Shown here in pieces: positions 1-42,222 of a stretch of 64,000 nucleotides of DNA. The notes under the pieces are model-generated. The model did no database searches. It had not been told where the DNA came from and worked only from the letters and a program-made list of their open reading frames with translations. The stretch's first letter is position 1. Each line of letters starts with the position of its first letter. This DNA comes from Chrysomallon squamiferum. Taxonomy: Eukaryota; Animalia; Mollusca. The translations under genes and the position numbers were made by a program. The stretch is taken from positions 36,146,001-36,210,000 of the forward strand of contig CM022670.1 in assembly GCA_012295275.1 (NCBI GenBank). Direction: 5' to 3'.

Positions 1-8
1 TGAAAAGC

Positions 9-31
9 TAGCACTAGCAAATGCAAGGCAT
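9..31 (+). ncRNA. 3' arm of another copy of the hairpin family, cut by the window edge
   Basis: TAGCACTAGCAAATGCAAGGCAT at 9-31 matches the array's 3' arm in the same orientation. Confidence 0.55.
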
Positions 32-1602
32 TATCACTTGTACAAACAACAAGAACAGAGCAATCAGTATTTTATGTCTGTATAGAGGAATAAAACAAAG
101 ACTGGAGTATACAATGTGTATGTGTGTGCATGTGCATGTGTGTGTTTGTGCACAAGTTATTTCCAAATGCATATGTATGTGTGAAATTGTGTAAATTTGC
201 TATTCGTATGTCTTTACAGTTCTCCTGTTAATGTTAAGAGGAAGCTATTGATAAAAAATAAAAAAATAAAAAATATCTGACATTGATCAACATTTGCAAT
301 TTTATATTTCAGTAAAGTCCATTTGTTGCCAGAGAACCATTGTAATTTGATAAATATGTTGAATATATTTGTTTCAGTTAAAATGTAATCAATAAATGAA
401 TGTAATTATGCTTTCATTGCAGACAACAAAAAGAAAAAGGAAACAGTTTACAGACTACAAAAACATATTGTTAAAAGGAAAACCTGTTGAGATATCAGTA
501 ATAAATTTCATGAAATAAATAAAAATCAGAATCAAATATATTTTGTTGTTATTCTTTTAAAATTCCAGTCAAAATTTCTAAATTTCCAGTCAAAGTAATA
601 CACATCATTAAGATAAATAGGAAAAAAAAAAAAAAAAATTCAGTTATTTATTCACTCATTCTTTCATTCATTCATTCTTTTCTACTGTATTTTGTTTTAT
701 TTCTATAATTTCTTTCTTTCTTTCTTTCTTTAATTTCTTTCTTTCTTTCTTTCTTTATTTGTTATCAAAATTATTAATTACTATTTCTTTTAAAATTAAA
801 AAAACATTTTCTTTATTTTAATTTCAAAAGTTATGAGGGTTCTCCAGCAGCAGCAGCAACAACTACAACTACAACTACAACTACTACTACTACTATTTCT
901 ATTATTATTGCTGTGCTTGCTGTTGTTGATTACCATGGTTTATCTATTTTCAAACCAGTTTTAAAAAAGAAAAAAAAATGTATAGTGGAGTATTTTATTT
1001 GATAAAAATAAACAAATAAATAATTTTATGGAGAAATCAGTTTTCCAACAATTATTCCTGCATTATATATCTTCATTACCAATTTCCTAAATGTAGTAAA
1101 TTAGTTGCAAAACATTCAGTTTTGAAATAAATATCTTTTTGGAAAATATATAAATTATGTATTTCTCTTGACTATAAAGTTGTTTTTAATGTGATATATT
1201 TAAAAAAAAAAAATAATTATTGCTTATATTAAATTTATTTTTTTATGAAATCATGCATCAATTAGAATCTGTAAGGTAATGAACAAATATATATTTTTGT
1301 TTATTTATTTTATTTTATTTTATTTTATTTTTTTTTTATTTTTTTTTTTTATTTTATTTTATTTTATTTTATTTTATTTTATTCAACTCCTGTCCAACTA
1401 TATGATCAAGAAGACAAAACACCATAAGAAGAAAAAAAAAAATATATATATCAGGTTATTATTTATAATATTTATCAAAACAAAAAGGAAAAAGAAAAAG
1501 AAAATCAAATAGTAAGAAAACACACTTGATATTTACTAATAGTAATCAGTTCATTTTGCAGACAATAATAAAAACACAAACAAAGAAGTTAACATTCCCA
1601 AC

Positions 1603-1646
<44 letters not shown>

Positions 1647-2497
1647 CTTATTTTTATTTTTTTATTTAATCAGATAAAGTATAATACATTTTTCAAATGT
1701 GAGTTTTTCTGTGAATATCAGGATCATATTCATGTACCAAAATAAATAATGTTTAGGACTGTAATAAGTATGAGTGTGTGTGTGTGTGTGTGCACAGAAA
1801 CATAATAGTAGTGAAATTCTTTTCACTTGTCTTGTTATGAACACAATAAATCCAAGGTAACAGCTTTTAAACTTTCTACAAATTTCACATTTCTTGTTCA
1901 AAATGAAAATGAAAGATTAATTAAAACCATCTTCCAAATAAAACAATGTAAAGAAAGTAAAAAAAAAATATCCAGCATTATCTGAATTCATTTTAAATTT
2001 ATAATTTTACACACACACACAAGTGCTATCCGAAAAAAAAAAAAAAAATGATTGACATACTCATAATGCAAAGTTTCATTTTCAAACATTGTTTTAACCA
2101 AATTTTATAGTTATTTATACCACCTACCTGTATAAACTAAAAAATAACAACCAAAACTGATTACACCTGAACAAATCAACATCAATTTTTAATTTTTTTA
2201 ATTTATTTAATTTAAATTTTTTTCATAGGTTTTGAAAAGGAGAATAAATAATTTCAGATGTTTAATATATTACACATGATAAAAATTAAAGAAACTATTT
2301 CAGAAAAAAAAAAAAAAAAGAACCATTCCATACTTTTCCAATTACCCCAACAGACATCAATGAAATGTTCAACAATAAAACAAGGTAAGTTTTCAGTCAA
2401 GCCTTCTTCTCCACCAAATATCATGTCAAAGCATAAAGAAAACAGACTAGAAGCTGGCTGTGCTCAATCTAAGTCACCAGCTGTCCAATTAATTGTA

Positions 2498-2680
2498 ACA
2501 ACATTTACAATAGCACAACAAAGTAACCAATTCAGACATGGCTACCTTCATTAATTAGGTCACAAGCTTACTGTTATTGTCTAATTACAACAGCATTTAC
2601 AATGGCACAACAAGGTATGCAAATCAGACATGGCTACCTTCATTAATTAGGCCACAAACTCACTGTTACTGTCTAATTAG
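2498..2680. repeat. Two-copy tandem duplication, unit about 91 bp
   Basis: ACA[A/G]CATTTACAAT[A/G]GCACAACAA...CAGACATGGCTACCTTCATTAATTAGG[T/C]CACAA...CTGTTA[T/C]TGTCTAATTA occurs twice. Confidence 0.85.
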
Positions 2681-2804
2681 TTCAATGCCAGTGTCTTAAT
2701 TAGAGCTGGAAAATTAAAGGATTAGTTTCTCTATAGAAGATGATGTTTTGTATCCTTTAATTATTGTCACTTGTTGGTGTAGCCTAGGATATGCTGAAGG
2801 CTGG

Positions 2805-2961
2805 CATATAAGGGTGACATTCGAAACAGATTTCAGTCAACAAGCTTTTGCAGCTGGTCACAGTCAGCATATACTTATTTAGCATTATATGAATATATAC
2901 TGTTTTAAATCACTGATATACTGGTAACAGAAAAAGAAAAACTCAGAATATTCAGGTAAGT
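2805..2961 (+). promoter_or_regulatory. Candidate TATA + Inr core promoter and non-coding first exon of the hairpin-cluster host transcript
   Basis: CATATAAG at 2805-2812, Inr-like TCAGTC with A at 2835 (about 30 nt spacing), and a consensus donor CAG|GTAAGT at 2953-2961, about 500 nt upstream of the first hairpin on the same strand. Confidence 0.5.
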
Positions 2962-3444
2962 GCAACATTTTCTGTTTTTTTGTTTCTTTTATTTTTTGAA
3001 CCCTCCATTATTTTTGGAAATTTAATTTATAGGGAAGATAAATATTACAGCTTCTGAACAAGTTATTTTAAATAAATATTTAAAATATTTAACAATAACA
3101 AGCAATTAAAAAAAAAAGTTGTAAATTCCTGACACACATTAGAAGTATCTGAAACTATGCAACAACTGCTATCAATTTTAAACATTAATTTCAGATTCAG
3201 TAACATTTAAAATTAAAAAAAAAACAAAAAAAAAAAAAACATATTTTCACTTGACACAATTATTATTTAAAATAAATTAGGATTCAGAAGATATGTAAAT
3301 TTGTTACAAGTGAGAATTTAAAAAATTATCTACTTGCTTTTTACTTGTTTTGTCTATTTACTAATATTGGCCAATAGAAGATACAGAAATAATATACTAA
3401 GTGTTGAGAATAATGCAAAATTCTTATCAATAATGTTAATTTTC

Positions 3445-6400
3445 AAATTTCTTATTCCTGGTATTAGCTTTGTGTTAATAATTACAAAAATATCAGCACT
3501 AGCAAATGCTAGGAATAATTATAGATTACTACCAACTGTAATAATTTTAGATGCATTGTCATTATAAAGTATCTCTTGATTATAAATGACCAGATTTTCA
3601 TTGCTCCTGGTATTAGCTATGTGCTGATTGGAAAACAGTATTAGCACTAGTAAATGCTAGGAATAGTGATAGATTATCATCAACTATTAATTTTTGATGA
3701 ATTGATATATATATATTGTATATTTAGATTATACCAGTAAATGACTGGAAAATATGTTAGCACTAATTAATACTGGGAATAATGTGAGATCATTAACAAC
3801 TATTAAAAAATAAAAATGTTAACTATTACAAATTTTTTCTAGAAAATAATTATGTAATTATTCCTGGTATTAGCTGTGTGCTGACTGGAAAACAGTGTTA
3901 GCACTAGCAAATGCTGGGAATAATCTCAAATTGTTAACAACTATCAAAATATTACAGATTTTGTCTATTATAACATTTTTTTGGAATTAATTCTATTATT
4001 ATTCTTGGCATTAGCTATGTGCTGACTGGAAAATAGTGTTAGCACTAGTAAATGCTGGGAATATTGTTAGATTGTTAGCAGCTATTAAAATATTAAATGT
4101 CATAACTATTACAATATTTTTCTACAAAATAATTCTGTTATTATTCCTGGTATTAGCTATGTGCTGACTGGAAAACAGTGTTAGCACTAGCAAATGCTGG
4201 GAATAATCTCAGATTTTTAGCAACTATTAAAATAAAAAATTTTAACCATTGTGATGTATCGCTAGATAGTATTTAAAAAAATCTTTATTGTTCCTGGTAT
4301 TTGTTATGTGATGACTGGAAAACAGTGTTAGCACTAGTAAATGCTGGGAATAATGTCAGATAGTTTGCAACAATTATATCTGAAACATTTTAGCCATCCT
4401 AGAAAATACTTCATCAGATCTTTGTTATTCCTGGTATTAGCAAACAATGTTAGATTATTAGCAACTACAAAAATTTTAAATATATTAACATTAAAATGTA
4501 TCCCTAAGCAGTAAATGTCCAGATCTTTATTGTTATTTATACTGGCTAGTGCTAGTTGGAAGATGCTGGGAATTATGTCTGTTTTTTTATGTATACTTTC
4601 AAATTTTAAGATGAATAAATCATTCATATTCTTGGTATTAACTAAGTGCTTACAGGAAAAGAATGTTAGCACTAGCAAATGCTGGGAATAATGTTAGATT
4701 ATTAACAAAACAAAGTCAGACTACTGTCAAACTTGATAAATGTGAAAATGTACAGTGAAATTACAATGATGATTTACAAAACTAATTTTAAATCTTTCTT
4801 GTTCCTGGTATTAGCTTTGTGCTTGTAACAGTTAAAAATACTAGCACTAGCACTAGCAAATGCTGGGAATAATGATAGATTAACACAAAGTTAGACTATT
4901 GTGTCAAACTTGATAATCGTGAAAATGTACAGTGAAATTATAATGATGATTTACATAATTAATTATTCAATCTTTCTTGTTCCTGATATTAGCTTTGTGC
5001 TTGTAACAATAAAAAATACTAGCACTAGCAAATGCTGGGAATAATGTTAGATTATTAACAACACAAAATAAGACTACTGGCAAACTTGATAAATGTGATA
5101 ATGTACAGTGAAATTATAAAGATATTTACAAAATTAATTCTAATCTTTCTTGTTCCTGGTATTAGCTTTGTGCTTGTAAGTAAAAAAAAAAAATACTAGC
5201 ACTAGCAAATGCTGGGAATAATGATAGATTATTAACACAAAGTTAGACTATTGTGTCAAACTTAATAATCGTGGTGATGTACAGTGAAATTATAATGATG
5301 ATTTACATAATTAATTATTCAATCTTTCTTGTTCCTGATATTAGCTTTGTGCTTGTAACAATAAAAAATACTAGCACTAGCAAATGCTGGGAATAATGTT
5401 AGATTATTAACAACACAAAGTCAAACTATTGTCAAACTTAGTAATTGTGAAAATATATAGTGAAATAATAAAAATGATTTACATAATTAATTATTCAATC
5501 TTTCTTGTTCCTGATATTAGCTTTGTGCTTGTAACATTTAAAAATACTAGCACTAGCAAATGCTGGGAATAATGTTAGATTATTAACAACACAAAGTCAA
5601 ACTATTGTCAAACTTAGTAATTGTGAAAATGTATAGTGAAATTATAAAGATGATTTACAAAACAATTTTAGTCTTTCTTGTTCCTAGTATTAGCTCTGTG
5701 CTTGTAACAACACAAATACTAGCACTAGCAAATGCTGGGAATAAGGTTAGATTATTAACAACACAAAGTTAGACGATTGTCAAACATGGTATTTGCGAAA
5801 ATGTACAGTGAAATTATAAAGATAACATTCATAATTAATTATTCAGTCTTTCTTGTTCCTGATATTAGCTTTGTGCTTGTAACAGTACAAAATACTAGCA
5901 CTAGCAAATGCTGGGAATAATGTTAGATTGTAACAACATGATTATTGCCACACTTGATAAATGTGAAAATGTACAGTGAAATTATAAATATGATTTACAA
6001 AACTAATTTTACAGTCTTTCTTGTTCCTGGTATTAGCTCTGTGCTTGTAATAATAAAAAAATACTAGCACTAGCAAATGCTGGGAATAATGTTAGATTAT
6101 TGAAAATACAATGTCAGATCGTTATCAAGCATGATAGTTATGAAAATATACACTTATTCACATAATTATTAAATCTTTCTGGTTCATGACATTAGGGGAC
6201 AAAAATTAAGCATTATCAAATATGGGGAATAAAGTAGATTATTATAAACACTGATATCAAAGTACATCAATTAACAAAACTGTATTGTTCCTCGAATTAG
6301 CTATGTGCTAGTAAGAAAACAAAATTAGCACTAGCAAATGCTAGGAATCATTTTTGATGATTAAAAAATATAGCAGTTTTAAAAATATATTAATATATTA

Positions 6401-9070
6401 ATATTTATATTAGCTACGTGCTGACTAGAAACTTATTAATATTATTGGATCTGGTAATAAATGTAGCTTTTTTTTTTTCAAAACATCTTTACCAATTGTA
6501 ATATATGTATATAATTAGTTTTTTTGATAATCAGATCTTTCTTGTTACTGGTATTTCAGAGTGCTTACTGGCAAAAAAAATGTTAGCACTAACAAATGCT
6601 GGGAATAATGTTAGATTTCAACAACAGTGTTTATTCTCCTGATTTTCATTTTCATTTTCATTTTTTTATTTTAAATATCGGCCAAAATTCTTTAGATATT
6701 ATAACAAAACATAAATCTTTTTTGTTCCTAGTAATTCTGAGTGATGACTAGAAAACAATGTTAGCACTAGCAAATGCTAGGAACATTGCTAGATTATTCA
6801 ACTGAGTCAATTTTTAAAATGTTTCCTAATTCTAATTATCCATATGTAAAATATACAATCTTTCTTGTTCCTTGTATTTCAATGTGCTTGTAGGAAAACA
6901 AATGTTATAAATCAATAATCTGAATGATCAGATCTTTATTATTCCTGGTATTAGCTATGTGCTCATAGGAAAAAACAAATTAGCACTAGCAAATGCTAGG
7001 AATAATATTTGATTATAACTACATTTAACATGCACTGACAAATACTATAAATTTATATTATCAGTGATTATATATTTAGTTATTCCTGGTATTATCTTTG
7101 TGCTGACATAGATGGGAAATGTTAGCATTCATAAATGCTAGGAATAATTATTGATTATTAATCATTTTTATAATTTTAAAATATAATTACTGATCATTTT
7201 TAATGCAAAATGATTATCAAATCTGTGTTGTTCCTTGTATTAGTTATGTGCTAAAAGGAAAATAATGTTAGCACTAACAAATGCTGGGAGCAAGGCTAGA
7301 TTATTAACTAAGATAAAGGTATTGCTTGTCAGTTTCTTCATAATACCTAAATAACAGTTAATTTTCATTCCTGATATTAACTAAGTGATGGTTTACAACT
7401 GTCATCAAATCATTATTGTTCCTAATATTAGCTATGTGCTTACAAGAAAAAAATGTTAGCACTAGCAAATGCTGGGAGTAATAGTAGATTATCAACAATT
7501 GATACAAGACTGTTGTCAAGCATGTTGAGTGAAATTACAAACATGATATAAATAATTATTAAACAAATAATTCTTGTTCCTAACAGTAGCTATCTGCTTA
7601 CAAGAAGAAAATGTTAGCACTAACAAATGCTGGAAATAATGCTTGATTATTGACAACCATAATGTTGGATAATACCAAGAATGATAATTATAAAAATATA
7701 CACTCTGTTATTAGCACAATCATAATAATTATTAAATGGGTCTTATTCCTGATATTTCTAAGAACCATTAAAAATTAAATGCTTGGAATAATGACTTAAG
7801 AGCATAGAAACTGTATTTGAATTTACTATCAGATCTTTATTGTTCCTTGTATTAGCTTTGTACTCACAAGAAGACAATTAGCACTAACAAATGCAGGGGA
7901 ATAATACTAGATTATGAAACTACCATTATTTAAAAATTAAAATTTTACAGAAGTACAATCTTTTGATTAATAGTAATGAATCACGATTGCTTATAATGAT
8001 CATTCTTATTCCTGGTTATTAGCAATGTGCTGATAGGAAAAAACAAATTAGCACTAGCAAATGCTAGGAATAATATTAGATTATGACCACATCCTGCAAT
8101 TTAACATGCACTGACAAATACTATAAATCTTTATTATGAATGATGAGATCTATATTTATTCCTGCTACTAGCTTTGGGTGACATGGGTGGGAAATATTAG
8201 TACTCATAAATGTTGGGAATGATTATTGAATATTAATCATCTTCATAATTTTTAAATATGTGATCATTTTTGATGTAACAGAAATGTGTTGTTCCTTGTT
8301 TTAGTTATGTGCTAATGGGAAAATAATGTTAGCACTAGCAAATGCTAGGAATAATATTAGATTATTATCAAACAAGTATTTAGAGTATATCTAAATAATT
8401 TATTATGTTTTTCTGCCTAGTTCCAGAGTACTATGTTAACAACAACAACAACAAAAATATCAGTAGTAAACACAGAGAAAAAGACCTTGTTGTTATTAAA
8501 GAATTACTTGAAAGTCTTCAGCTTCTAAAAGTATGTTGTTGTACTAAAATTAACACAGTTTTATTATTATTGGGGAAAAAAGAAAGCTCACTGGTCAGTA
8601 TCAAGAAATCTTTCTTGTTCCTGGTTATAAATAATATAAGCATGAACAAGTCCCAGGAATAATGCATGATCACTATTTACAATGAGAAAATGAATTCTGG
8701 TGTATTTGTATATTAATAACTGAATTTTTAAACCATTATTTTATTCTTTGTAGTTACCAATTTAAACATCCTACCACCATTTAATTTAAAGTGCTTGTTA
8801 TCATATCTAGGCATTTCGAATATTATGATAGTAATCTATATATATATATATATTATATAATTATATAAAATAAAAAAAAAGCAACTAAATTATGTATGGT
8901 TTTGTGAAAACCTGAGTTAAAATAATTAAAGATGGAATCAGTCATGGGAGATTATCTTCATCACATACTTACTTACATTCATATATATATTTAGATCTTT
9001 CTGGCATTTGATATGTGCTTGTTTCAGAAAAATGAAAGCAACTAGCAAATACTTGCAGTAATATAAGATT
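3445..9070 (+). ncRNA. Tandem cluster of about 28 complete (plus about 10 degenerate) pre-miRNA-like hairpins; predicted mature 3p UAGCACUAGCAAAUGCUGGGAA
   Basis: Repeated unit TTCCTGGTATTAGCT[A/T]TGTGCT-loop-TAGCACTAGCAAATGCT[G/A]GGAATAAT, e.g. 4144-4203. The arms pair with G-U wobbles only on the + strand. The lower stem extends about 11-13 bp (AATCT/AGATT) and CAAC (CNNC) lies about 17-18 nt downstream of the 3' arm. The 3' arm is more conserved than the 5' arm, which is more conserved than loops and spacers. Confidence 0.8.
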
Positions 9071-9669
9071 CTTTATCCATTTCTGGAATTATTGTAACAA
9101 AATAAATTTTAATTAAAATAAAATTTCAATGTATAACATAAAAATATTTTTTCTATTAATATTATTGATTATATCCATGATGAAATGAAACACCATTACC
9201 AGCTAGGAACTACATTTTCTTATACAATAAAACAGAAATTAGATGGGCAAACATTATTTGTAAAAATAGTAAAATAACATTTGTTTCTTCAAATGTTCAG
9301 AATTACTCTCAGAAAAACTAATAAAATAAACTGTTTTAAAAAGATGATTTTATTAATTTTTTTTTTGTTTTATTATTTTGAAATAACAATAACAAACCAT
9401 TTTATCATTATAATATTAAGCATTACTTTCTGTTCTTGCTGATTTTTAACTCTCTATTTGTATTATATTTATGATCTTAAAGTTTATAATAAATTTAAAG
9501 ATAAAATATTCTTTTGTATTTCACAACAGTTTTATTGTTATAGGACATAACTGCTTTAACCTTTTCAATATGTTAAACAAGTGCTACAATGGTCATAATA
9601 TTGATCTAAACTGACCACTTTAGCAGTCACACTGATGCCAATGCATCAGACCTACTACCTTAAATCTAA

Positions 9670-9860
9670 TTAACTCAGCTCCACAACGAAGACAAGACAT
9701 TAATACTATAACTATATACAAGTATGATTTATCAGATGAAATGTTAGTTTTGGGGGTTTTGTGGATGGTTTTAAATTGCAGTTAATTCAGCTCCACAATG
9801 AAGACATTAATACTATTAGTAATTTTGATTTACTCAGATGAAATGTTAGTTCTTAGATTT
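9670..9860. repeat. Short two-copy tandem duplication
   Basis: TCAGCTCCACAA.GAAGACA...TCAGATGAAATGTTAGTT occurs at about 9675 and about 9787. Confidence 0.7.
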
Positions 9861-10012
9861 TCATGGCTGTTAGTTAATATAGTACATCATAAAAAATTTA
9901 ACTCCCTTTTTAGTCAGTGACACCTCAGTTTGCTTTCATTCATTTGTTTGGTTGCTGTTGTGCCATACATAAAACAGACAAGTAAATACATACACCTATA
10001 TATATATCCTAC

Positions 10013-13000
10013 CTCATGTACATGTAACTTTTCCAATTCTATGGCTTCTTCTTCAGAATGTGGTATAGCTGAACTGAAATGAAAAATTAGATTTGATTTT
10101 TTAGCCTTTCTTGAAATATTAACAAGCAAAGAAGAAGGAAAAAGGAAAATGTATTAGATTTAATGGTATTTCTGAAAATTAAATAATTATGCTAAACTTG
10201 ATTTAAACCGTAATTTATTTGCCTAAAACAAATGCTGAGAAAGAACAGAAATTATAATTTTAAATATTAACAATTTAACAAAGGATAACAAAGGTTTAAT
10301 ATGGTTTGAACACATAGACATGTTATTATTACAGAACTAATGCATTGACTATATCTTAAACAAATCAATATGAATATATAATGCTTGATGATTATACACA
10401 GGACAAACAATAAAGACAGATTATCTTACCTTGAATGATTATGTGATTTCTCATTTGTCATTTCATCATCTGATAAAAAGGATGATAATAAATTCAAAAA
10501 TTAAACAATTGAAACAATTCATAGAAAAAAAGCTGTCAAAATTAAACAATTAAACAGCAGACTTTTTTAACATGCCTAACCAAAACTAAGATATTGTTTT
10601 TATTTATCTTCTCTATGAGAAATGTAGCTTTCTTTAATTAAAGCCAAATTGGACCATGATTCTTACAAAAAATTAAAACAATAGTACCTCATGAAAACTA
10701 TAAAGAAAAAAGCTTTATTTGTTATTTTCTTTTTTTTTTTTAAATATTCCCTAATATAATTCTCAACCAAAAAAAACCAACAAAAAACATCTTTCTTGGA
10801 ATTGAACATTTATTTCCCAAGTGTACAAAAATGTAGAGAAACAAAATAATTGAAAACCACTCCTGTACTCGCAAGAATGTATTTGTGAAGGAATGACAAC
10901 TGAAATAACTAGCAAGAAAAAAGAAAGAAATAATAATAATAATAATAATAACATATTTAAAAAGAAAAACCTGTTTGTATTTTTAATTTCCTGAAAGTGA
11001 AAGATGTTCTTGTTCCACGTTTGAGCAGAGTGAGATTGCCATCAGCTGTTGGAACAATGTCAGACTTTCTGGGTGTGATGCCATGTGACCAGACATATCG
11101 AGAGTCACCGGTCATGATAATTAAGCTGCGAGCTGGTAACAATACTGACAGATGTTGTCCATCGGGATGACGAAAATCCATCACAGTCTAAATAAAAAAA
11201 TGTATTGTTGTAAGAAACTCAGTGGAATGGTACAAAAATCAAGATGAAAAATTAAGTTAAATATTTGGAGGAAGAAGAGCTAAAGATTTAATACCAGATA
11301 TTATCATAACTGATTAAAAGATTCTCTTTATTTCTGCCCAGAAATATGTAAGCTTAAATACTCTGTGAAGTGACACAGCAACCAATATGAAATCTATTAA
11401 CTTAAAGAGAATGAGATATATGTTTCATGATAAAAGAAAAACAACCTGACTACAGGCTATATTAGATACATGGTGAAATAATTTTAGTAAATAATTTAAT
11501 GTATTTTAGTGTTACCAAAAAAATGTAAAGAACAAAGAATCTGATTATTTTAAAATACATTTCAGAATTGTTTTACTGCAGAAAATAAAATAAAAACAGA
11601 AAACAGGTGCTTTATCTATACATTTTTAATAATAATAATAATAATAATTTTAAAAATTAAAACCAAAACCTGAGATCCTAGGCTTAAAGACATTATCCCA
11701 TCTTCAAAAGCTGACACAGTATCAACATGAGGTGGAATTCCTTTATTTACAAAAACACAAAGAAAACTATATGTTTTCACAATAATAAATATAATATATA
11801 CTGTTTATTCTCATAGAAATGATTAAAGGAATTATCTAAAATGTTAAACTAATGTTTTTAAGCAAAATATTCATTTATTCAAATGAATGGAAACAAAATG
11901 TAGAATTTTTTATTCATAAATTGGATAAAATGGTTATATTATATATGACACCTGAAAGATAAATAAAGTACTGAAGATGATAATTAAAGCCCCCCAAAAA
12001 TAAACCCAAAATCTGAATAATTTACAATGTAAAATACTGCTATTTTTTTTTAATGACAAAATGAAATATAGATAGAAATAAAAAACTGTATCAACCTTGG
12101 CCTGGTTTATACTGATTGACAGTCAACTGATCAGGAAAATGATGCACAACTTTCATTTCCAAAGCTCGATTCAGCATTTCGTAACATTCCTTTGGAATAC
12201 CCTGAGGTAGTGGTTCATTAGGATCCACATTGTTTATTCCATACTTAAACTCAAAGCCAAAGTGTTGCACATTCCTATGTTTAAGACATTTCTGAACTGG
12301 AAATAAGTAAAAAATGTTGGTAATTTACAGGTTAATTTATAGATAAAATGGTATTTGTTACTAATATTTATCTTTTTTTGTTTTCCTTTTGCTTTTGCAA
12401 CCAAACACAATTTAAATAATATATTTGTTAATCTTACATTAAATACGTAAAACACGAAATAATTATAAAAAGTATGAAAACTAATTAAACTGGATTTGTT
12501 ATGAAACAGAAGATTATCTTAAGATTATTTTTTTAAATTCAATGGAGAAAAGTTATGTCAAGTACTGAATTAAAACCTTTTCAAAAATAAACTTAAACAA
12601 ATTTTACAGAGTATTCAGTTTGACTGTGTTTGTGGAAGCTACTTAAAGTAATAACCACATTTACTATTAATGTTCTTAATATAAAATTAATTTTATATTA
12701 CAACACATCCAAAAAAATGACCTGTATTATCATCTTCATCCTCCCATTGAAGACACTGAAGTAATTTTTCTTCATATTCTGGAGTCAAAAATTTTCCAAC
12801 AATATTAAACCAGGAGGTAATGAAGACGAGGGGCCAAGAGAAGAAGGCACTGAAAACATCAGTATACTTTTAAATTTACTTTGGCTAAAATATTTTACTA
12901 AAACTGTTTTTCAAGGGACAAAATAAGTAAATTGTGCATCTTCCTATCATATGTGGATTTACTTTAATGCAGGTATTTCTAAAATCACACACATAATAAT

Positions 13001-15440
13001 ACAGATTGTTCTAAAATAAGATTGCACAAGTTTTATTTGATGTTAATAAAGAGAGACAGGTGTAGGTGTGTGTGTGTGTGTGTGTGTGTTTTGTATATAC
13101 ATATATATGATGTCTTAAATTAACAATACTAAATGATCTAAAAATTATATTTTTTTTCCCAGCAATATTTATCATGGTCTGAATAGCAAATAGTTAAATT
13201 TTAACAGCTTCAATTTACAAAATTGAGATATTGGAAATGTAAAAAAACAACAACAAAGGCTCTTCTTCAATAGTCATCATTTTGTTAAGAGAGAAATTAA
13301 GAAGCTTACTGTAATGGAAAGCATTCTGAAGACAAACTTATTAATTTAATAAACCTGATAAAAAATAAAAGAAGTAAAAGAGTACTCTAAGTTTTATCAA
13401 GTTTTATACATTTAATTGTATAGACTGGTATTATACACTGAAAATATATATGATACCTTGGTTAACAAATGTAATATAAAATCGAATCTGCTGTGAATAA
13501 AGACTTCCTGTGACATTATGCCCATTCAGGGCATTGTAAGCTGCATCTGCCTCTGATACATTTTCAAAACAAACAAAGCAGTATGGTTTTTTGGACAGCA
13601 TAATAACATCTTCTACTGTCCCATATGGATTAAAGAGTTCCATAATTTTTTCATAAGTCATATCAGCATCCAGACCTCCATTATTAATGCACAAAATCTG
13701 GAAAAAAGTACATATAAATATCTTTAAAACTCTGTGCATAACAAAACAAAAAAAAAATGACAAAATAATGTACAAAAAATAAGAATCTAAATTAATAGAT
13801 AATTCAAAACACAATATTCAGTTTTGGTATAGATCATATTATGGTAGATTGTACCTTTTAACATTCACAATGATAAACTATCTAAGTCACTTATAAACCT
13901 TTTTGGTGCACCGATATAAAGTGCAAGGTTTTATTGCTTCTATGTGGTTAAAATAAAACTGGTGGGGTGGGTAATCTGGATGTAGGAAAAAATGGCACTG
14001 CAAAAAAGATACATGGAAAAAATGGCACCTGGAAGAAATGGCACAATGAAAATTTAAAAAAAATGGCACTTTATTTTATTTGTTTTGTATAGTTGCTTAA
14101 AAAAAAACCCACCTTAAAAGTACTTTTGAAAATACAATTTATTTGTGCAATATTGCTACATATATATATATATATTAATATATAGCATCACTCAACCACT
14201 TGGTTTTGCTCAACAAAGTACAATATTATAACTCAGTTTAATACTACAATTATCACATTATTATCACATTTAAAAATACAGTATGCATAGCATCACTCAA
14301 CACATAGCATTACTCAGCCACTTGGTTTTGGTTATCATGAGGTTTCCAGCACATGCTGTGACTAGCAATTATGAATTGTTTTTGTAAGGAGGACTTAATG
14401 GATTATATGATCATGATCAAACACTAATGGAATTATGTGTGTGTGTGTGTGTGTGTATATATAGATCCATGAGTACATTCAAACATACAGAAATGTTCAA
14501 ATATCCTCCAAAATGTAATTTCAAACATATATGTATGTATGTATGTATGTATTTATATATGTATGTATATGTATTTGGCGGATTGTTTTTGGTTTACATT
14601 TGTTTTGACTGTTTAATTATGAATGTCAACAATTGTTAAATATGACATTAGCTGCGGATTATATTATTTCTGACATTAATTCATTATCTCAAATATTATT
14701 CATGCACTGGTTTTTTATGTGCAATAATTAATTGTTTTTGTAAACAGGACTTCACCTACTACCAATAACTAAATGTCAGTAAGCAGTAAAAAAAAAAAAA
14801 ATTTCGAGTGCCCTTTTTTCCAGTGTCAATTTTTTTTCTTTTTTTTCTGAACCACGGGAAATCTGATACCATTTTCTGTGCCACTTGTAGATGTTGGTAC
14901 CAATTACTGTGACAACTGCTCAGCGTTTAGCATCAACCTTATAAGTTGTGTAATGTCTTATTATCTAACACAGTAACACTGTAACTGTTTAAGTATAACA
15001 CACTAAGTGACTAACGCTGTTACAGCATTAACCTTATTTCAAGCTGGGACAAAATGTGCACAATACTTTATGAATATACGATAAATTATTACGAATATAA
15101 TAAAATTACCACAAAATTTTGTGCTCTTCATAAACATTATACTGGTAATATTTGAGACAAAATCAAATTATCTGTATAAGTATTGTCTATTGAATATCAT
15201 CAGTATCAGTATGATAGTGGTAATGGTGATTATCATGGGGTTTTCGTGATCATTGCTCTTTAAGTGAAATTAACCATTTATATTTCCTTTATAATATTTC
15301 TTTAATTTCACCTTCGTTGGAACCTCGCATGTTCCAATACCGTCATGTTTCATCAAAATATATTTCGCCTTATTTTGTTTCTTAATCAATTTTCTTTCAC
15401 GCTTGTTTATTTTCAGATTGCCATCTGTGGAGGCTGCCAT
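10013..15440 (-). CDS. ALKBH8: tRNA (carboxymethyluridine(34)-5-O)-methyltransferase / AlkB homolog 8, 5' part (RRM and 2OG-Fe(II) dioxygenase domains; methyltransferase exons not seen, presumably left of the window)
   Basis: GT-AG exons 15440-15312 ([34 protein letters not shown]), 13697-13457 (ILCINNGGL...RRM), 12849-12722 (LPPGL...; carries a 1-nt frameshift), 12296-12096 ([15 protein letters not shown]...[14 protein letters not shown]), 11740-11670 (IPPHVD, HxD motif), 11187-10971 ([15 protein letters not shown]...RTSFTFRK), 10469-10430, 10073-10013 (ELEKLHVHE). Motifs match ALKBH8, and exon phases are consistent apart from the frameshift. Confidence 0.93.
13978..14853. mobile_element. 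Degenerate non-autonomous TIR (MITE/foldback-like) element in ALKBH8 intron 1
   Basis: The left end has tandem GGAAAAAATGGCAC-like motifs (13985-14070). The right end has the inverted motif GTGCCCTTTTTTCCAGTGTCAATTTTTT (about 14808-14853). Confidence 0.45.
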
Positions 15441-18662: not shown

Positions 18663-21600
18663 CTTTTGTATTAAATGTATTATTAATATTAAATTTTTTT
18701 AGGGCATAATATCGGAAGCCATTCTAAAAGAACGTCTTGATCAGGAAACATTAGAAGCTGCAGGCTTAATACCATCCAAACTTCAGTTCCAGGCTAAATT
18801 TGTCAAGACAAAAACAAGATTATAGTATGTATTTTACAATGTATCGACATTTTGTTGTTAAAGTGCATTAAAGGCTCAAATATCAAATTATTTGATGTGT
18901 TCTGAAGGTACAGTCTGCTGCTGCATCTAAAGAAAAATCAGTGGTTATTGCAGTTTGATTGTTTGGAAAACTATTTTGCCACTAATTAATTTGATTTTCA
19001 GTTTTTCTAAATATTGTGAGCTTTTATAATTTTAAATCTTTACAGTATTAAACAGTTTAATAGTCAATTGTGAAAAATCTTATTTGATTTATATTTTTTT
19101 CCAGCTACAAGCAACAAAAGTTTAATTTGCTTCGTGAAGAAAGTGAGGGCTATTCCAAACTTGCTACAGAATTGAATCAGGAAATAGCTTACAATAAGCT
19201 GACTTACACACAAGTCTTAGAAAATATCAAATCATTGATTGGTAAGTAACATATTTTATCCTCTTTTTTTTCTATTTTTTGTTTTTGTGGTAAACAAGTT
19301 TGTTACTGCAGATCCCTCTCCACAATAGTTTTTTTTTTGTTTGTTTTAATTTGTTTTGTTTCTAATATCACTTAATATTTCTGTTTAAAAAGAAGTTTAT
19401 AGAAAATTTTTTTATCTTGAATAATAGATAAATGTAATGTTTTCTTTTTTAGGTTGTTTTGATCTTGATCCAAATCGTGTTCTTGACATCATACTGGAAT
19501 CATTTGAATGTCATCTGGAACATGAATCTTTCTACATTCCTCTGTTACATGCCTATGTTCTTGACAGGCAGACCCTGTGCCATGTACTTGGATTCCGGTT
19601 CCACTTCTATGAGGTAGATACCATTCCTTCATTCTTCTGTGCATTTATATATCAGTAAGAGAGAGAGAGAGATTAAAAAGCATTTTAGTAGCTGTTGCTT
19701 TGTTATTTTCTTAAATGTACATCCGAATTAGCTCTTTATGATTGTAATTTTTATGTAGAAATTATTATGTATATATATATAAATACTTTTTTTCTTTTAA
19801 GCCATCTCAAGGATCAGATATTCCATCATCATTATATAAAATTGCAGCACTGCTTCTGAAACACAAGCTAGTCAGCCTTGATGATCTTTATCCTCATGTA
19901 AGTTATAAATAATAAAAGCTATATCAGAAATACTAAACAGTTTTAAAACTTTTATGTTTGAAAATTGTACACACACATTAATTAAATATTTGTATGAAGA
20001 ACATTTTTTTCTTCTTGACCATTACATTTTCTTTATACTCATATCTGTGTTGTTAGACCCTTTGTTTGGTAGATCCAAGTATATAAAGAATATTTTTGAC
20101 AACATGCTTTTCTGATTTTATGTCTCATGTAAATTTGTCAATCTTTCAGCTACTGCCTAGTGATGCAGACATTGTTTCCTATCACAACAAAGAGGTTTCA
20201 GATGCTAAAGTCTACGCTAGAAAATTAAATGTTCTTGTCTTGTCTGACAAAAAGGATGATGATAAGGACAAAGAAGATACAATGAAGATTGATTTGGTAA
20301 CTTATTGAAACAATTAATTTGTGTGAAATGATAATTTGAAATAATTAAATTCATATATCATTCATCTGATTATTTTTATTTAATTAAATGGTTTTTACTT
20401 CCCTTTTATATTTTAATAATAATAAAATGTTGATAACTTTTGTTAATGGTTTCAACTTTTCATGTTGGTGTTACTTAATGTGCAAATTTTTAAGTTGTTT
20501 TTTTCATCTTTTTGTTTATTTTGTTATTAGTAATAAATTACATTATACAGTTCTGTAATAAAGTTACTTTTTAATTAGAGATTTGACATTTTTTAGCGTG
20601 CCAATAATCAGAAAATTGGACTGTGTGAAGCTTTGTTGGAGATTGGTTCTTGGGAGAATGCTAAGGCAATTCTGGATCGGATGCCTGAATATTTTGCTGT
20701 TTCTTACAGTCCCATAGCAAAAGCACTGTGTACCTTCATCCATGCTGCCATTGAGCCATTATATCATCAGTGAGTTTTTGTTACTTGTCAATGTCTGTAA
20801 AGCATTCACATCTGAGCTGCAATACAAAGATAAGTCTGTTACAAAGAGTTTGTAGAAATGAAGTGAATACTGCAGAGCAATTAATGGTTATATTGATTTA
20901 AGTTTTTATTTTCTTTAAACAAAAAAAAGTTAGCTTATCCATTGGACTAAATGATTTTTTATTTGAAAACTGTTATCATAACCATGTTGTTTTTATTTTT
21001 TTTTTTTACTTTTTTTCAGAAACTGTGGATTATCTGGTTATCTGAGAAGGAGAAGATCAAAATATCCAAAAGACAAATCAGGCATAGAGACTGTAAAGAC
21101 TTTCCAGCAACTTCACCACAAAGTGTTTCCAATGTTGTCATATCTAGGACCACATGCCTCAATAGACCCTGTCCTGTTGGTTAAATTCATGAGAATGGGA
21201 AAAGCATTCATGATCAAAGTATGTTTTCAGTGCAAAATGCTAAGTCATTTACATTTGAAAAACCAAAGGGTCCTAAAATAAAATGTCAAAAACTGTGCAC
21301 ATCTGTAAAGAAAACACTTAACATTTACATGAAGTAATTAACTTCATCTTTTTAAGAAATAAATGCAAGCTTTATATTACCAAAATGATAAATCTATTAA
21401 AATGATTAATTTTAAGCATATTTGATTTCAGCGAAATGATGGAGGTATTGCACCTGAGGATGATGTAGCCTACTATGGCTTCTTGAATGTGCTTGATGAT
21501 GTTCTGCTTCCATGCCAGTCACTTTTGAGGTGCAACTGCTGCATAGCTGAAGAATTGTGGAACTTCCTAAAACACTTCCCTTACGAACTAAGGTACTTAA

Positions 21601-40600: not shown

Positions 40601-42222
40601 CACTATTGCTATTGATTTTTTGACAGCTTGTATTGATTCTGATACTGTGCAGACTGAAACAGATATTTGTTCAAAAGGAATAGAAATGTTAATATCCTGA
40701 ATTTTATGAGTTTTTTTTGTTTTTTTTCTTGCATTAACTTCCAAACTGGTGCAGATCATTTTGGAAATTTTTTTTTTTTTTTTTTTAAAATGAATTACTC
40801 AATAATTTTAAGAGACATGTTTTTGTTGTTGTTTTTTTTAAAAAAGGATTCATATGTTTTTTCATTAGCTTAGTCAGATATGCATTTTTTTTTTCAGATA
40901 CACAATTGTTCTTTGCTTTCAGGCAAGATCATAAAAACCGTTTTATTCTTCACAAATGTATATGCCATTAGAAACAGAAATGATGAGTTTCACAAATTTT
41001 GATATTGTACAAAACTCACAAAAAATCTCAGTAAATATTTCTAACTTTAAAGCAAAACGTTCTGCATTATTTTATTTACTAAATAAAAATGTAGAAAAGA
41101 AATGGTTTAAACCTTTAAATATACCTCTTCTACAGATTCAGTTAAAATGCAAAATAAAATTTTACAATTACAAGAACTGTACTGTTTCCATTTATCATCA
41201 AAAAAATTTCAGTGTATTATTTACACACAAGGGAAGTAAGCTCTTTGAATTGAGGAGATAGTTTCTGATGACAAAACGTGTTCAAGGCCTACATTTTCTT
41301 CCAGAGTCCTTCCACTGAACGAGAACGAGAACGTGAAAGGGATTGGGACAGAGATCGAGATTGGGATAGGAAAGAAAGGAAAAGGGTAAACAACATGTTT
41401 TTTTTTTTTTTTCTGATTTAAATGTTACCTGGTATGCAGGCTCATCTGTCTTCCACAGGGAAAAGATGCTTCGTTATGTTCCATTTAAGTTAATGAGACA
41501 ATGTAAATACCTCGTAATGTAATGGTTCACCAAGAAGTGATAAAACGTGTTTATTTCATCCAAATAATGAGTACATGCAAATATATCTTAATGTAGTGGT
41601 TCACCAACAGGTGATAAAACTTATTTACATCCAGTTAATGTAAAGTTGTAAATATTTCTTCGTGTAAGGGCTCACCAAGAAGTGACAAAACATGTTAATT
41701 TACATGCAGTTAATGTGAAGTTAAAAATATCTCTTAGTGTAATGTTTCCCCAAAGGTGATAAAACTTGTTAATTTACATCCAGTTAATTTGAAGTTATAA
41801 ATATCTATTACTGTAATGGTTTATTAAGGGGTGATGAACCTAGTTAATTTGAACATATATATCTGTTGCAAATCAAAAATCAAAAATTGCCAGAAATATA
41901 AGGTTTAAACATACACTAATTGATAATAAAGAAGTTGCTACGGTCAGCAGTAATTTCATATATTTAAAACTTCATAAACTTGCGATCTGGCATTTATAAT
42001 TTTATCAGACATTGTTTCAATGCTTTGCCCAATTGAAATAATTTAGAAAGTTTTAACATTGTTGTGAATACTGTTTGTTTATTTCTTAATCCACTGAATA
42101 TTCTTTTTTAACTTTTAATCAAGTTTAAACTGACTTGTTTTGTTATGTGTAGGATCATTCCCTTGAAAAGGTTGAGGCTGACCTGAAAAGAAGACGAAGT
42201 GAGGAAATGTTTTCATCTCGTA

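Follow-up and report, generated by a model that had tools for sequence, protein, structure and literature searches.

What is the long run of related hairpins that lies antisense within ALKBH8 in Chrysomallon squamiferum? The run was analyzed in 64,000 nucleotides of forward-strand DNA (GCA_012295275.1, CM022670.1, positions 36,146,001-36,210,000; hereafter the window). We favor, with a probability of roughly 0.57, a polycistronic embryonic microRNA (miRNA) cluster that would repress mRNAs, most likely maternal ones. The array is read as a likely miRNA cluster of an old mollusc family because it keeps a near-identical arm and because its oyster matches were sequenced almost only in embryos and early larvae.

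Organization of the hairpin array

A hidden Markov model was built from 18 hairpin copies and run with nhmmer on the 64-kb window at E<0.05. Of the 38 + strand matches, 37 lie in 3448-9074 (28 full-length and nine partial) and the last is an isolated arm piece at 5-35, a count close to the ~28 complete and ~10 decayed copies counted in an earlier note on this DNA. The features of the locus are as follows.

10011..15440, - strand: ALKBH8 coding exons, RRM and AlkB domains
3448..9074, + strand: tandem array of 28 full and nine partial miRNA-type hairpins, predicted pri-miRNA (nhmmer, folding)
5..35, + strand: solitary 3' arm at the very beginning of the window; its 5' arm would fall outside (nhmmer)
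3742..4376, + strand: block of ~141-bp units, 4.5 copies, 79% matches (Tandem Repeats Finder)
4667..6152, + strand: youngest block, ~176-bp units, 8.5 copies (Tandem Repeats Finder, divergence)
6169..9074, + strand: older copies that have diverged further, several units being decayed; pieces of this segment are present in RNA contigs

Every copy in the array has the same orientation, and about one unit in three is partial or degenerate. The spacing of 140-180 bp proposed earlier holds for 18 of the 27 intervals between full copies and fails for the others, which measure 133, 188 bp or longer. Segments 6931-7306 and 7998-8367 represent a duplication (81% identical). No further convincing hairpin family was seen in 1-3440 and 9075-10010 of the window.

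At 10011 a GT donor closes the last ALKBH8 exon in the window, the methyltransferase exons being located past the window's first position. Because a spliced RNA contig joins 10011 to the next, out-of-window ALKBH8 exon, the array is placed inside an ALKBH8 intron that exceeds 10 kb and extends past the window start. Together with the - strand exons at 15440-10011, this contig bears out the antisense intronic position suggested before. Both RNA runs yielded contigs that contain pieces of the array; these contigs carry no strand, stage or level and could derive from ALKBH8 pre-mRNA or from DNA. They cover parts of the array and none of the other ALKBH8 introns or 8450-9594, missing cover not being counted as evidence.

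Folding, strand preference and processing marks

The hairpin is represented by the copy at 4144-4203, for which folding reproduced the four G-U pairs, one A-A mismatch and one bulge described in the earlier note.

4146..4203, + strand: representative predicted pre-miRNA of 58 nt, with the 5p arm at 4146-4168, a loop, and the 3p arm at 4182-4203 (fold)
4182..4203, + strand: predicted mature 3p miRNA with the seed AGCACUA; the exact 22-mer occurs in 11 of 28 copies

These ends, derived from the basal stem and the CNNC motif, agree with the read-defined ends of homologs in oyster and Platynereis, in line with the earlier designation of the 3' arm as the conserved product with the predicted seed AGCACUA.

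When both strands were folded, the + strand did better for 26 of the 28, all but the copies at 7560 and 8981, as expected from the earlier claim that the RNA is transcribed from this strand. Across 33 distinct duplexes in a fixed register, 105 cells are G-U, compared to 18 A-C cells. These data bear on the reading that the hairpins act on the ALKBH8 strand, either as intronic structures or as miRNAs from the host pre-mRNA, or that an antisense transcript mainly regulates ALKBH8. The array does sit inside the ALKBH8 transcription unit, and its - strand also folds, but more weakly in those 26 copies. Moreover, two metagenome contigs with arrays of the same design, L001 (10 hairpins) and L002 (four distinct hairpins scored), show no link to ALKBH8 over the contig DNA available, and one oyster cluster is tabulated without a host gene; we consider this reading highly improbable.

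Beyond the strand-favored hairpin of ~60 nt, the copies possess a basal stem that spans roughly one turn of the helix and a CNNC motif ~17 nt downstream. In 18 of 28 window copies the motif begins 16-19 nt beyond the 22-nt arm, compared to ~1.3 expected (background 0.0116 per position), although the array copies are related and their counts are therefore not independent; it is lost in the other 10. At the same positions it is found in 8/10 L001 and 3/4 L002 hairpins. When basal flanks were exchanged with those of hairpins from another source, the own flanks paired better than the swapped ones in 35 of 37 distinct flank pairs (21/23 in the window, 10/10 in L001 and 4/4 in L002). In a covariation set of 22 hairpins (13/28 from the window, 5/10 from L001 and 4/4 from L002), 87% of cells pair and double-sided changes occur in 10 of 28 pairs; of the five measures, four outperformed all 500 shuffles and the remaining one was attained in six of the 500. 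Folding, flank swap and CNNC register agree with the miRNA-type hairpins with CNNC proposed at the outset.

Conservation of the 3' arm

Mean pairwise identity among the 28 copies is 0.90 for the 3' arm (0.95 for the seed), 0.75 for the 5' arm, 0.53 for the loop, and 0.43 and 0.35 for the flanks, the same order (3' arm > 5' arm > loop > spacer) that had been read from the letters. Divergence among the eight copies of the youngest block is 0.000 in the 3p arm, 0.054 in the 5p arm, 0.201 in the loop and 0.217 in the spacer. As these copies arose in place, zero 3p divergence compared to 0.217 in the spacers requires selection after the local duplications. Mature positions 2-8 are unchanged in 39 of 39 hairpins chosen by an arm-likeness filter, and across species the mature arm is conserved above star, loop and flanks.

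This selection weighs on the proposal that the family is real but the intronic locus is a displaced copy, now silent or decaying, with the working array elsewhere in the genome. Decay is visible in the nine partial units, in several full-length copies with broken arms and in the 10 copies without CNNC, and no promoter signal was seen: a TATA consensus scan, which is weak in AT-rich DNA, counted 10 TATA-like sites in 6.4 kb at the locus, as many as the background rate (1.58 per kb) predicts, and revealed no repeated promoters of the miR-430 kind. The same scan found no such site on the hairpin strand of L002 and two within the L001 hairpin run. Against displacement stand the frozen 3p arm and the locus pieces in RNA contigs of both RNA runs, strandless and possibly pre-mRNA or DNA as they are. 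Overall, we regard a displaced copy as improbable.

Still less probable is that the inverted arms are a feature of the DNA, belonging to a tandem repeat of MITE-like or satellite type or to an siRNA- or piRNA-producing locus. Tandem Repeats Finder calls two blocks, every unit is an imperfect inverted repeat, and members of the family are present at multiple loci and in several genomes. However, the 3' arm stays frozen as the 5' arm drifts, the copies share a single orientation, and homologs yield discrete arm reads in published tables. The MITE origin that the earlier note had set against its own call gained no support from the flanks, which share words of 3-5 nt, like the control. With no target-site duplications above control, and with a G-U/A-C asymmetry that speaks against strand-symmetric terminal inverted repeats, this reading is largely refuted.

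Homologous hairpins in oyster

The supplements of PMC4138081 contain 11 homologous unnamed miRNA hairpins of Crassostrea gigas (m0214, m0215, m0314, m0316, m0317, m0338, m0341, m0342, m0345, m0347 and m0348), arranged in three clusters, two of which are antisense in host genes. By eye, m0316-3p, m0345-3p and m0342-5p match the window arms at 19/22, 18/22 and 18/20 positions, respectively. The seed is AGCACUA in eight and AGCACUU in three, with the cut register as in the window. Both arms were sequenced, some copies failed the overhang rule, and 5p reads exceed 3p reads in four of the eight AGCACUA hairpins. The rows were reported as oyster-specific, seven of 11 stand in the table of rejected candidates, fewer copies are listed per cluster than in the window, and the main text mentions neither m0214 nor m0316. 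A further row, m0324, was excluded as unrelated.

For the family, reads from both arms, 5' end positions and embryonic or early larval expression come from published tables of these and other homologs. In the oyster tables, reads are concentrated in the stages from blastula to D-larva: eggs have 0-3, later larval libraries no more than three per arm, and eight adult organ libraries zero (PMC4138081). From blastula to D-larva, m0316-3p has 290, 1802, 789 and 1236 reads; normalized m0214 and m0314 peak at blastula (907 and 741 RPM) and fall afterwards. Oyster levels are no higher than hundreds of reads per million and carry on into trochophore and D-larva, which weighs against the favored role; we would guess that the filters of that study against repeats and multi-locus precursors may account for the low counts.

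Related arrays in metagenome contigs and annelids

The 17-nt arm core is exact in 10/10 L001 and 2/4 L002 hairpins, and the masked spacers of both contigs gave no blastn match to the window array at E<0.1. L001 consists of a repeated unit of three hairpin types. A homologous cluster is also present in the run of a second organism. The six loose ends listed for the DNA run X1 (one not shown) read as copies of the window array. In organism B, contig depth was 7500 for a 31-nt arm contig and 18.8 for one with the hairpin; the X1 values were 3548 (summed) and ~82. These depths are a hint and not a copy number.

Arrays of comparable design occur in two annelids, Platynereis (PMC12257675) and Capitella (PMC8915122), whose published tables describe tandem, near-identical, 3p-dominant hairpins of ~60 nt from embryo or larval libraries, with the 5p arm beginning and ending as in the window. 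In supplement 2 of PMC12257675 (miRDeep2), 28 of the first 30 of 48 rows with the miR-29 seed fall in two arrays on scaffold_13 and scaffold_24. They share the cut positions of the window hairpins, and their star arm matches window copy 3642 at 18/23 positions; however, the seed is AGCACCA, identical to that of miR-29, and the 3p arm matches at only 13/22. The terms searched did not find these arrays in the curated tables of that source. The libraries were pooled from 24-144 hpf and are therefore silent on cleavage stages. Among 15 rows covered for the embryo cluster on Capitella scaffold_488, four have AGCACUA together with an identical 7-nt start of the 5p arm, but the 5' end is one base off and the seeds vary; its authors likened the cluster to miR-430 and proposed a role in metamorphosis (PMC8915122).

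By-eye comparison indicates that the annelid arrays are probably homologous to the mollusc ones, and seeds vary among lineages (AGCACUA, AGCACUU and AGCACCA, with Capitella offset by one base). The label of a lineage-specific family had to be abandoned, given homologous clusters in oyster, two metagenome contigs, the run of a second organism and probably two annelids. The family is likely old in molluscs and probably shared with annelids.

Relation to named miRNA families

Rfam returned nothing at gathering level for the array, L001 and L002, the best being weak matches to unrelated hairpins, and no mir-29 match at E up to 10 over 3400-9100, L001 and L002. Like MIR-29, the window hairpins have a 3p product starting with UAGCAC; they differ at seed position 7 (AGCACUA compared to AGCACCA) and in the 3' half. 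True Mir-29 loci are separate and low-copy and, in the oyster tables, expressed in adults. The seed one base away from miR-29, pointed out before, gains weight because the Platynereis arrays have the exact miR-29 seed; nevertheless, from by-eye comparison, descent from miR-29 is a lead only. The loose likeness to miR-96 was dropped. It has no Rfam match, and miR-96 is a 5p product.

As a tandem high-copy array of a single seed, the locus resembles the fish miR-430 and Xenopus miR-427 clusters (PMC10417697), a likeness which the earlier note had drawn and which is supported here. The three-type unit of L001 is reminiscent of the a-b-c triplets of zebrafish miR-430, and the blastula onset of the oyster homologs of the onset of these clusters. 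Despite this similar architecture, the miR-430 seed AAGUGCU is unrelated to AGCACUA and nearly constant, whereas seeds vary by lineage in mollusc and annelid arrays. Clearance of maternal mRNA is a demonstrated function of miR-430 (PMC10417697) and a proposal for the window array.

The mature sequence was absent from the paper main texts searched, where only shorter terms matched, in unrelated papers. Among literature listings on a mollusc or spiralian miR-430-like cluster, the Capitella paper alone was relevant. The supplement of PMC11067994 (somatic and gonadal libraries) does not contain AGCACUAG, its miR-29 control appearing in one row only; those of PMC7488030 gave no match but missed the miR-29 control too and are uninformative. 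The available parts of PMC11701709 and PMC12750733 name no such family. A viral scan with the 17-nt arm gave 18 matches, which were rejected as chance because none has the family hairpin and the three that scored with the HMM are, by eye, a Walker A coding stretch.

A proposed role in the early embryo

We propose that the array would be transcribed on the + strand, antisense to ALKBH8, from a predicted promoter of its own, although no promoter signal was found. Drosha and Dicer would cut the transcript into one 22-nt 3p miRNA with the seed AGCACUA. By analogy with the embryonic and early larval reads of the oyster homologs, the array would switch on in the early embryo of C. squamiferum, and the product would repress and destabilize mRNAs with seed-match sites in the 3' UTR, most likely maternal ones. 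Judged from timing, maternal clearance is slightly favored: reads of the oyster homologs set in at the blastula (PMC4138081), which is also when maternal mRNA decays most strongly in the clam Mulinia (PMC12780502). No clearance mechanism is settled on in the clam paper, and the word miRNA is absent from the available text of both this paper and that on two annelids (PMC12550047).

Alternatively, the same embryonic family might do its main job later, tuning zygotic genes of the gastrula, trochophore and early veliger for larval patterning or the timing of differentiation. Maternal transcripts of two annelids decay by the ~8- to 16-cell stage (PMC12550047), which speaks against clearance, as do the still high reads of oyster m0316-3p in trochophore and D-larva (PMC4138081); the metamorphosis role suggested for Capitella (PMC8915122) and the 24-144 hpf origin of the Platynereis reads (PMC12257675) point the same way. 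On the other hand, normalized m0214 and m0314 are highest at blastula, and many copies of one seed suit a brief high-dose need (PMC10417697). A mainly later role is rather unlikely, yet the most serious alternative; the two roles are not mutually exclusive.

Tentatively, and with less confidence than for clearance itself, molluscs and annelids might share one ancient uncurated family derived from miR-29, repeatedly amplified in tandem, mobile between loci and retuned in its seed per lineage. Such a family would be to spiralians what miR-430 is to fish, the earliest zygotic means of removing maternal mRNA, and would have been overlooked because filters against repeats and multi-mapping discard it. 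If so, high-copy embryonic miRNA arrays would have had a further independent origin; the locus also shows that arrays of this kind are taken for satellites when genomes are annotated. The window array links scattered unnamed rows of oyster, Platynereis and Capitella into one family with a defined seed per lineage, so that clearance can now be tested on existing staged transcriptomes by the seed match in maternal transcripts that fall at the blastula.

The hairpin array in the window

The earlier note had reported a repeat and its position, and both are borne out by an HMM search of the window. An HMM built from 18 copies found 37 + strand units at 3448-9074 (E<0.05), 28 full length and 9 partial, with full copies spaced 140-180 bp apart in 18 of the 27 intervals. 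Tandem Repeats Finder resolved two blocks on this stretch:

3742-4376, 141-bp block
4667-6152, 176-bp block

The remainder of the array is too divergent for this program. Besides the 37 units, the HMM detected a single isolated 3' arm at 5-35, which suggests further copies along the same ALKBH8 intron beyond the window. No Rfam family matches the array repeat, no target-site duplications were seen at the array units, and TATA-like sites in the locus occur at the background rate without excess. A 92-bp duplication (2490-2679, 87% matches) precedes the first hairpin by ~770 bp and could be part of the array promoter region. Elsewhere, a 74-bp tandem repeat of 4.7 copies (41504-41850, 77% matches) has stops in all six frames.

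RNA structure and selection

The + strand folds better than the - strand in 26 of 28 copies. Among 33 distinct duplexes aligned in one register, 105 cells are G-U and 18 are A-C, an excess not to be expected of an inverted repeat acting as DNA. Identity falls from the seed (0.95) through the 3' arm (0.90), 5' arm (0.75) and loop (0.53) to the flanks (0.35-0.43). In the eight copies of the youngest block (4667-6152), the 3' arm is invariant against a spacer divergence of 0.217, which places selection later than the local duplications. In the type copy (4144-4203), cuts at 4146 and 4203 are predicted from the basal stem and CNNC motif, with a predicted 3p start at 4182; CNNC at +16..19 occurs in 18 of 28 copies, compared to ~1.3 expected. 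We conclude that the array is real, selected and of microRNA type, and assign a probability of about 0.95 to its membership in a miRNA family.

The same design in metagenome contigs and a second organism

Scanning JGI metagenomes with the 21-nt arm yielded two contigs, L001 with 10 hairpins, mainly in a 393-bp repeated unit of three types, and L002 with four distinct hairpins. An exact 17-nt arm core occurs in 10/10 hairpins of L001 and 2/4 of L002; the masked spacers of both contigs have no match to the window spacers. Basal flanks pair better with their own partners than with flanks from another source in 21/23 window, 10/10 L001 and 4/4 L002 hairpins, and CNNC is in register in 8/10 and 3/4 hairpins of the two contigs, respectively. 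As the hairpins were chosen by arm likeness, the arm invariance is inflated, and the flank results are unaffected. When 22 hairpins (13 from the window, 5 from L001 and 4 from L002) were aligned, 87% of cells were paired, with double-sided changes at 10 of 28 pairs. Four measures on this alignment exceeded all 500 shuffles and a fifth was equalled by 6, values that are not p-values because one of the window copies supplied the structure and the hairpins are related to one another. A run from a second organism contains a homolog of these hairpins, with 9 differences over 59 nt.

In each of the two contigs the starting sequence recurs at the end (L001 1-155 and 1615-1767; L002 at its ends), as would be expected of collapsed higher-order units of ~1.6 kb and ~1.0 kb. 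Each unit includes a hairpin-free stretch that might be a promoter site.

Homologs in oyster and probable homologs in annelids

In the supplements on Crassostrea gigas, three clusters together comprise 11 homologous hairpins, of which four were accepted as oyster-specific novel miRNAs and seven stand in the rejected table (PMC4138081). Compared by eye, oyster miRNAs m0316-3p and m0345-3p are identical to the window mature arm at 19/22 and 18/22 positions, and m0342-5p to the type copy at 18/20; the annotated ends of the oyster hairpins coincide with the cuts predicted for the window hairpins (PMC4138081). We regard the homology with the oyster hairpins as firm. Reads come from blastula, trochophore and D-larva, with 0-3 in eggs, at most 3 per arm in later larvae and none in eight adult organs (PMC4138081). 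The egg library is miRNA-poor (0.9%); at the blastula rate, arithmetic on the published counts gives ~60 expected egg reads for m0214-5p, with 0 observed (PMC4138081). Two observations complicate this pattern: levels reach hundreds of reads per million, no more, and 5p reads outnumber 3p reads in four of the eight copies with seed AGCACUA (PMC4138081). Such a family would be under-counted there, since repeat-mapping reads and multi-locus precursors were dropped (PMC4138081).

For Platynereis, miRDeep2 lists 48 rows with the miR-29 seed; among the first 30, two are true Mir-29 genes and 28 belong to two arrays (PMC12257675). These arrays resemble the window hairpins in their equal cut positions and 3p dominance, and their star arm is identical to a window copy at up to 18/23 positions, compared to only 13/22 for the 3p arm (PMC12257675). 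A term search of that study's curated tables did not find the arrays, and its section 14 does not mention them (PMC12257675). Capitella has an embryo-expressed tandem cluster that its authors compare with miR-430 (PMC8915122). Of the 15 rows compared, four share with the window the first seven 5p-arm bases and AGCACUA, the 3p start being displaced by one base (PMC8915122). By eye, homology between the window and annelid arrays is probable.

Relation to known families

Membership in MIR-29 (seed AGCACCA) was rejected on the window seed, AGCACUA, and the lack of a match to the Rfam mir-29 model. Descent from miR-29 is plausible, because the Platynereis arrays carry the exact miR-29 seed (PMC12257675). 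The array would work like miR-430, yet its different seed excludes it from that family. The literature searched, with miRBase, MirGeneDB and most subscription papers outside its scope, gave no paper naming the family or joining the mollusc and annelid clusters; a published name may exist.

Proposed mechanism and role

Microprocessor, Dicer and Argonaute act successively in the established miRNA pathway. Most likely, one + strand primary transcript would cover the whole array, each hairpin would be cropped by Microprocessor, and Dicer would release a single 22-nt 3p product that, with seed AGCACUA in Argonaute, would direct target repression and deadenylation. The window locus is very likely active, and its expression is likely confined to embryo or larva.

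We lean slightly towards maternal mRNA clearance as a main role, which fits the high copy number and the start of oyster homolog expression at blastula. Zebrafish clears maternal mRNA through triplet arrays of miR-430 (PMC10417697), and maternal decay in the clam Mulinia peaks at blastula, by a mechanism its authors leave open (PMC12780502). Against this role, homolog expression persists into larvae, seeds vary among lineages, and annelid maternal decay is mostly finished by the 8- to 16-cell stage (PMC12550047). With this array, maternal clearance in spiral-cleaving animals becomes directly testable on existing data.

The ALKBH8 host gene and RNA contigs

Within the window, the host gene occupies:

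15440-10011, - strand, ALKBH8, with a GT donor at 10011

Among the protein matches of one exon, Gigantopelta aegis (87%) and Haliotis (82-87%), both gastropods, rank above other molluscs, which makes a gastropod the likely host. A spliced contig in two RNA runs links the in-window exons and extends past 10011 into sequence that is absent from the window and translates as the next ALKBH8 exon; assembly permitting, the array therefore lies antisense within an intron of >10 kb. Unspliced array pieces are present in RNA contigs of both runs, which carry no strand, stage or level and whose libraries possibly contain DNA.

A 40-nt ALKBH8 exon (10430-10469), overlooked by tblastn, is supported by spliced contigs in both runs. 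The intron adjoining the last in-window donor is covered at 9598-10040 by contigs of both runs (depth 5.5-10.5), which may mark an early 3' end, and with it an ALKBH8 variant that would lack its methyltransferase domain, or may simply be pre-mRNA. From 15440 to ~16300, ALKBH8 stands head to head with a + strand THOC2-like gene (Pfam THOC2_N on exon 19437-19610), and the two may have a common promoter. Contigs in both runs, at window 6316-6342 and 7457-7478 (depths 5 and 22.8), have an identical 3' arm, a different yet complementary 5' arm and CpG-rich flanks; they perhaps derive from another locus of the family or from another organism in the sample.
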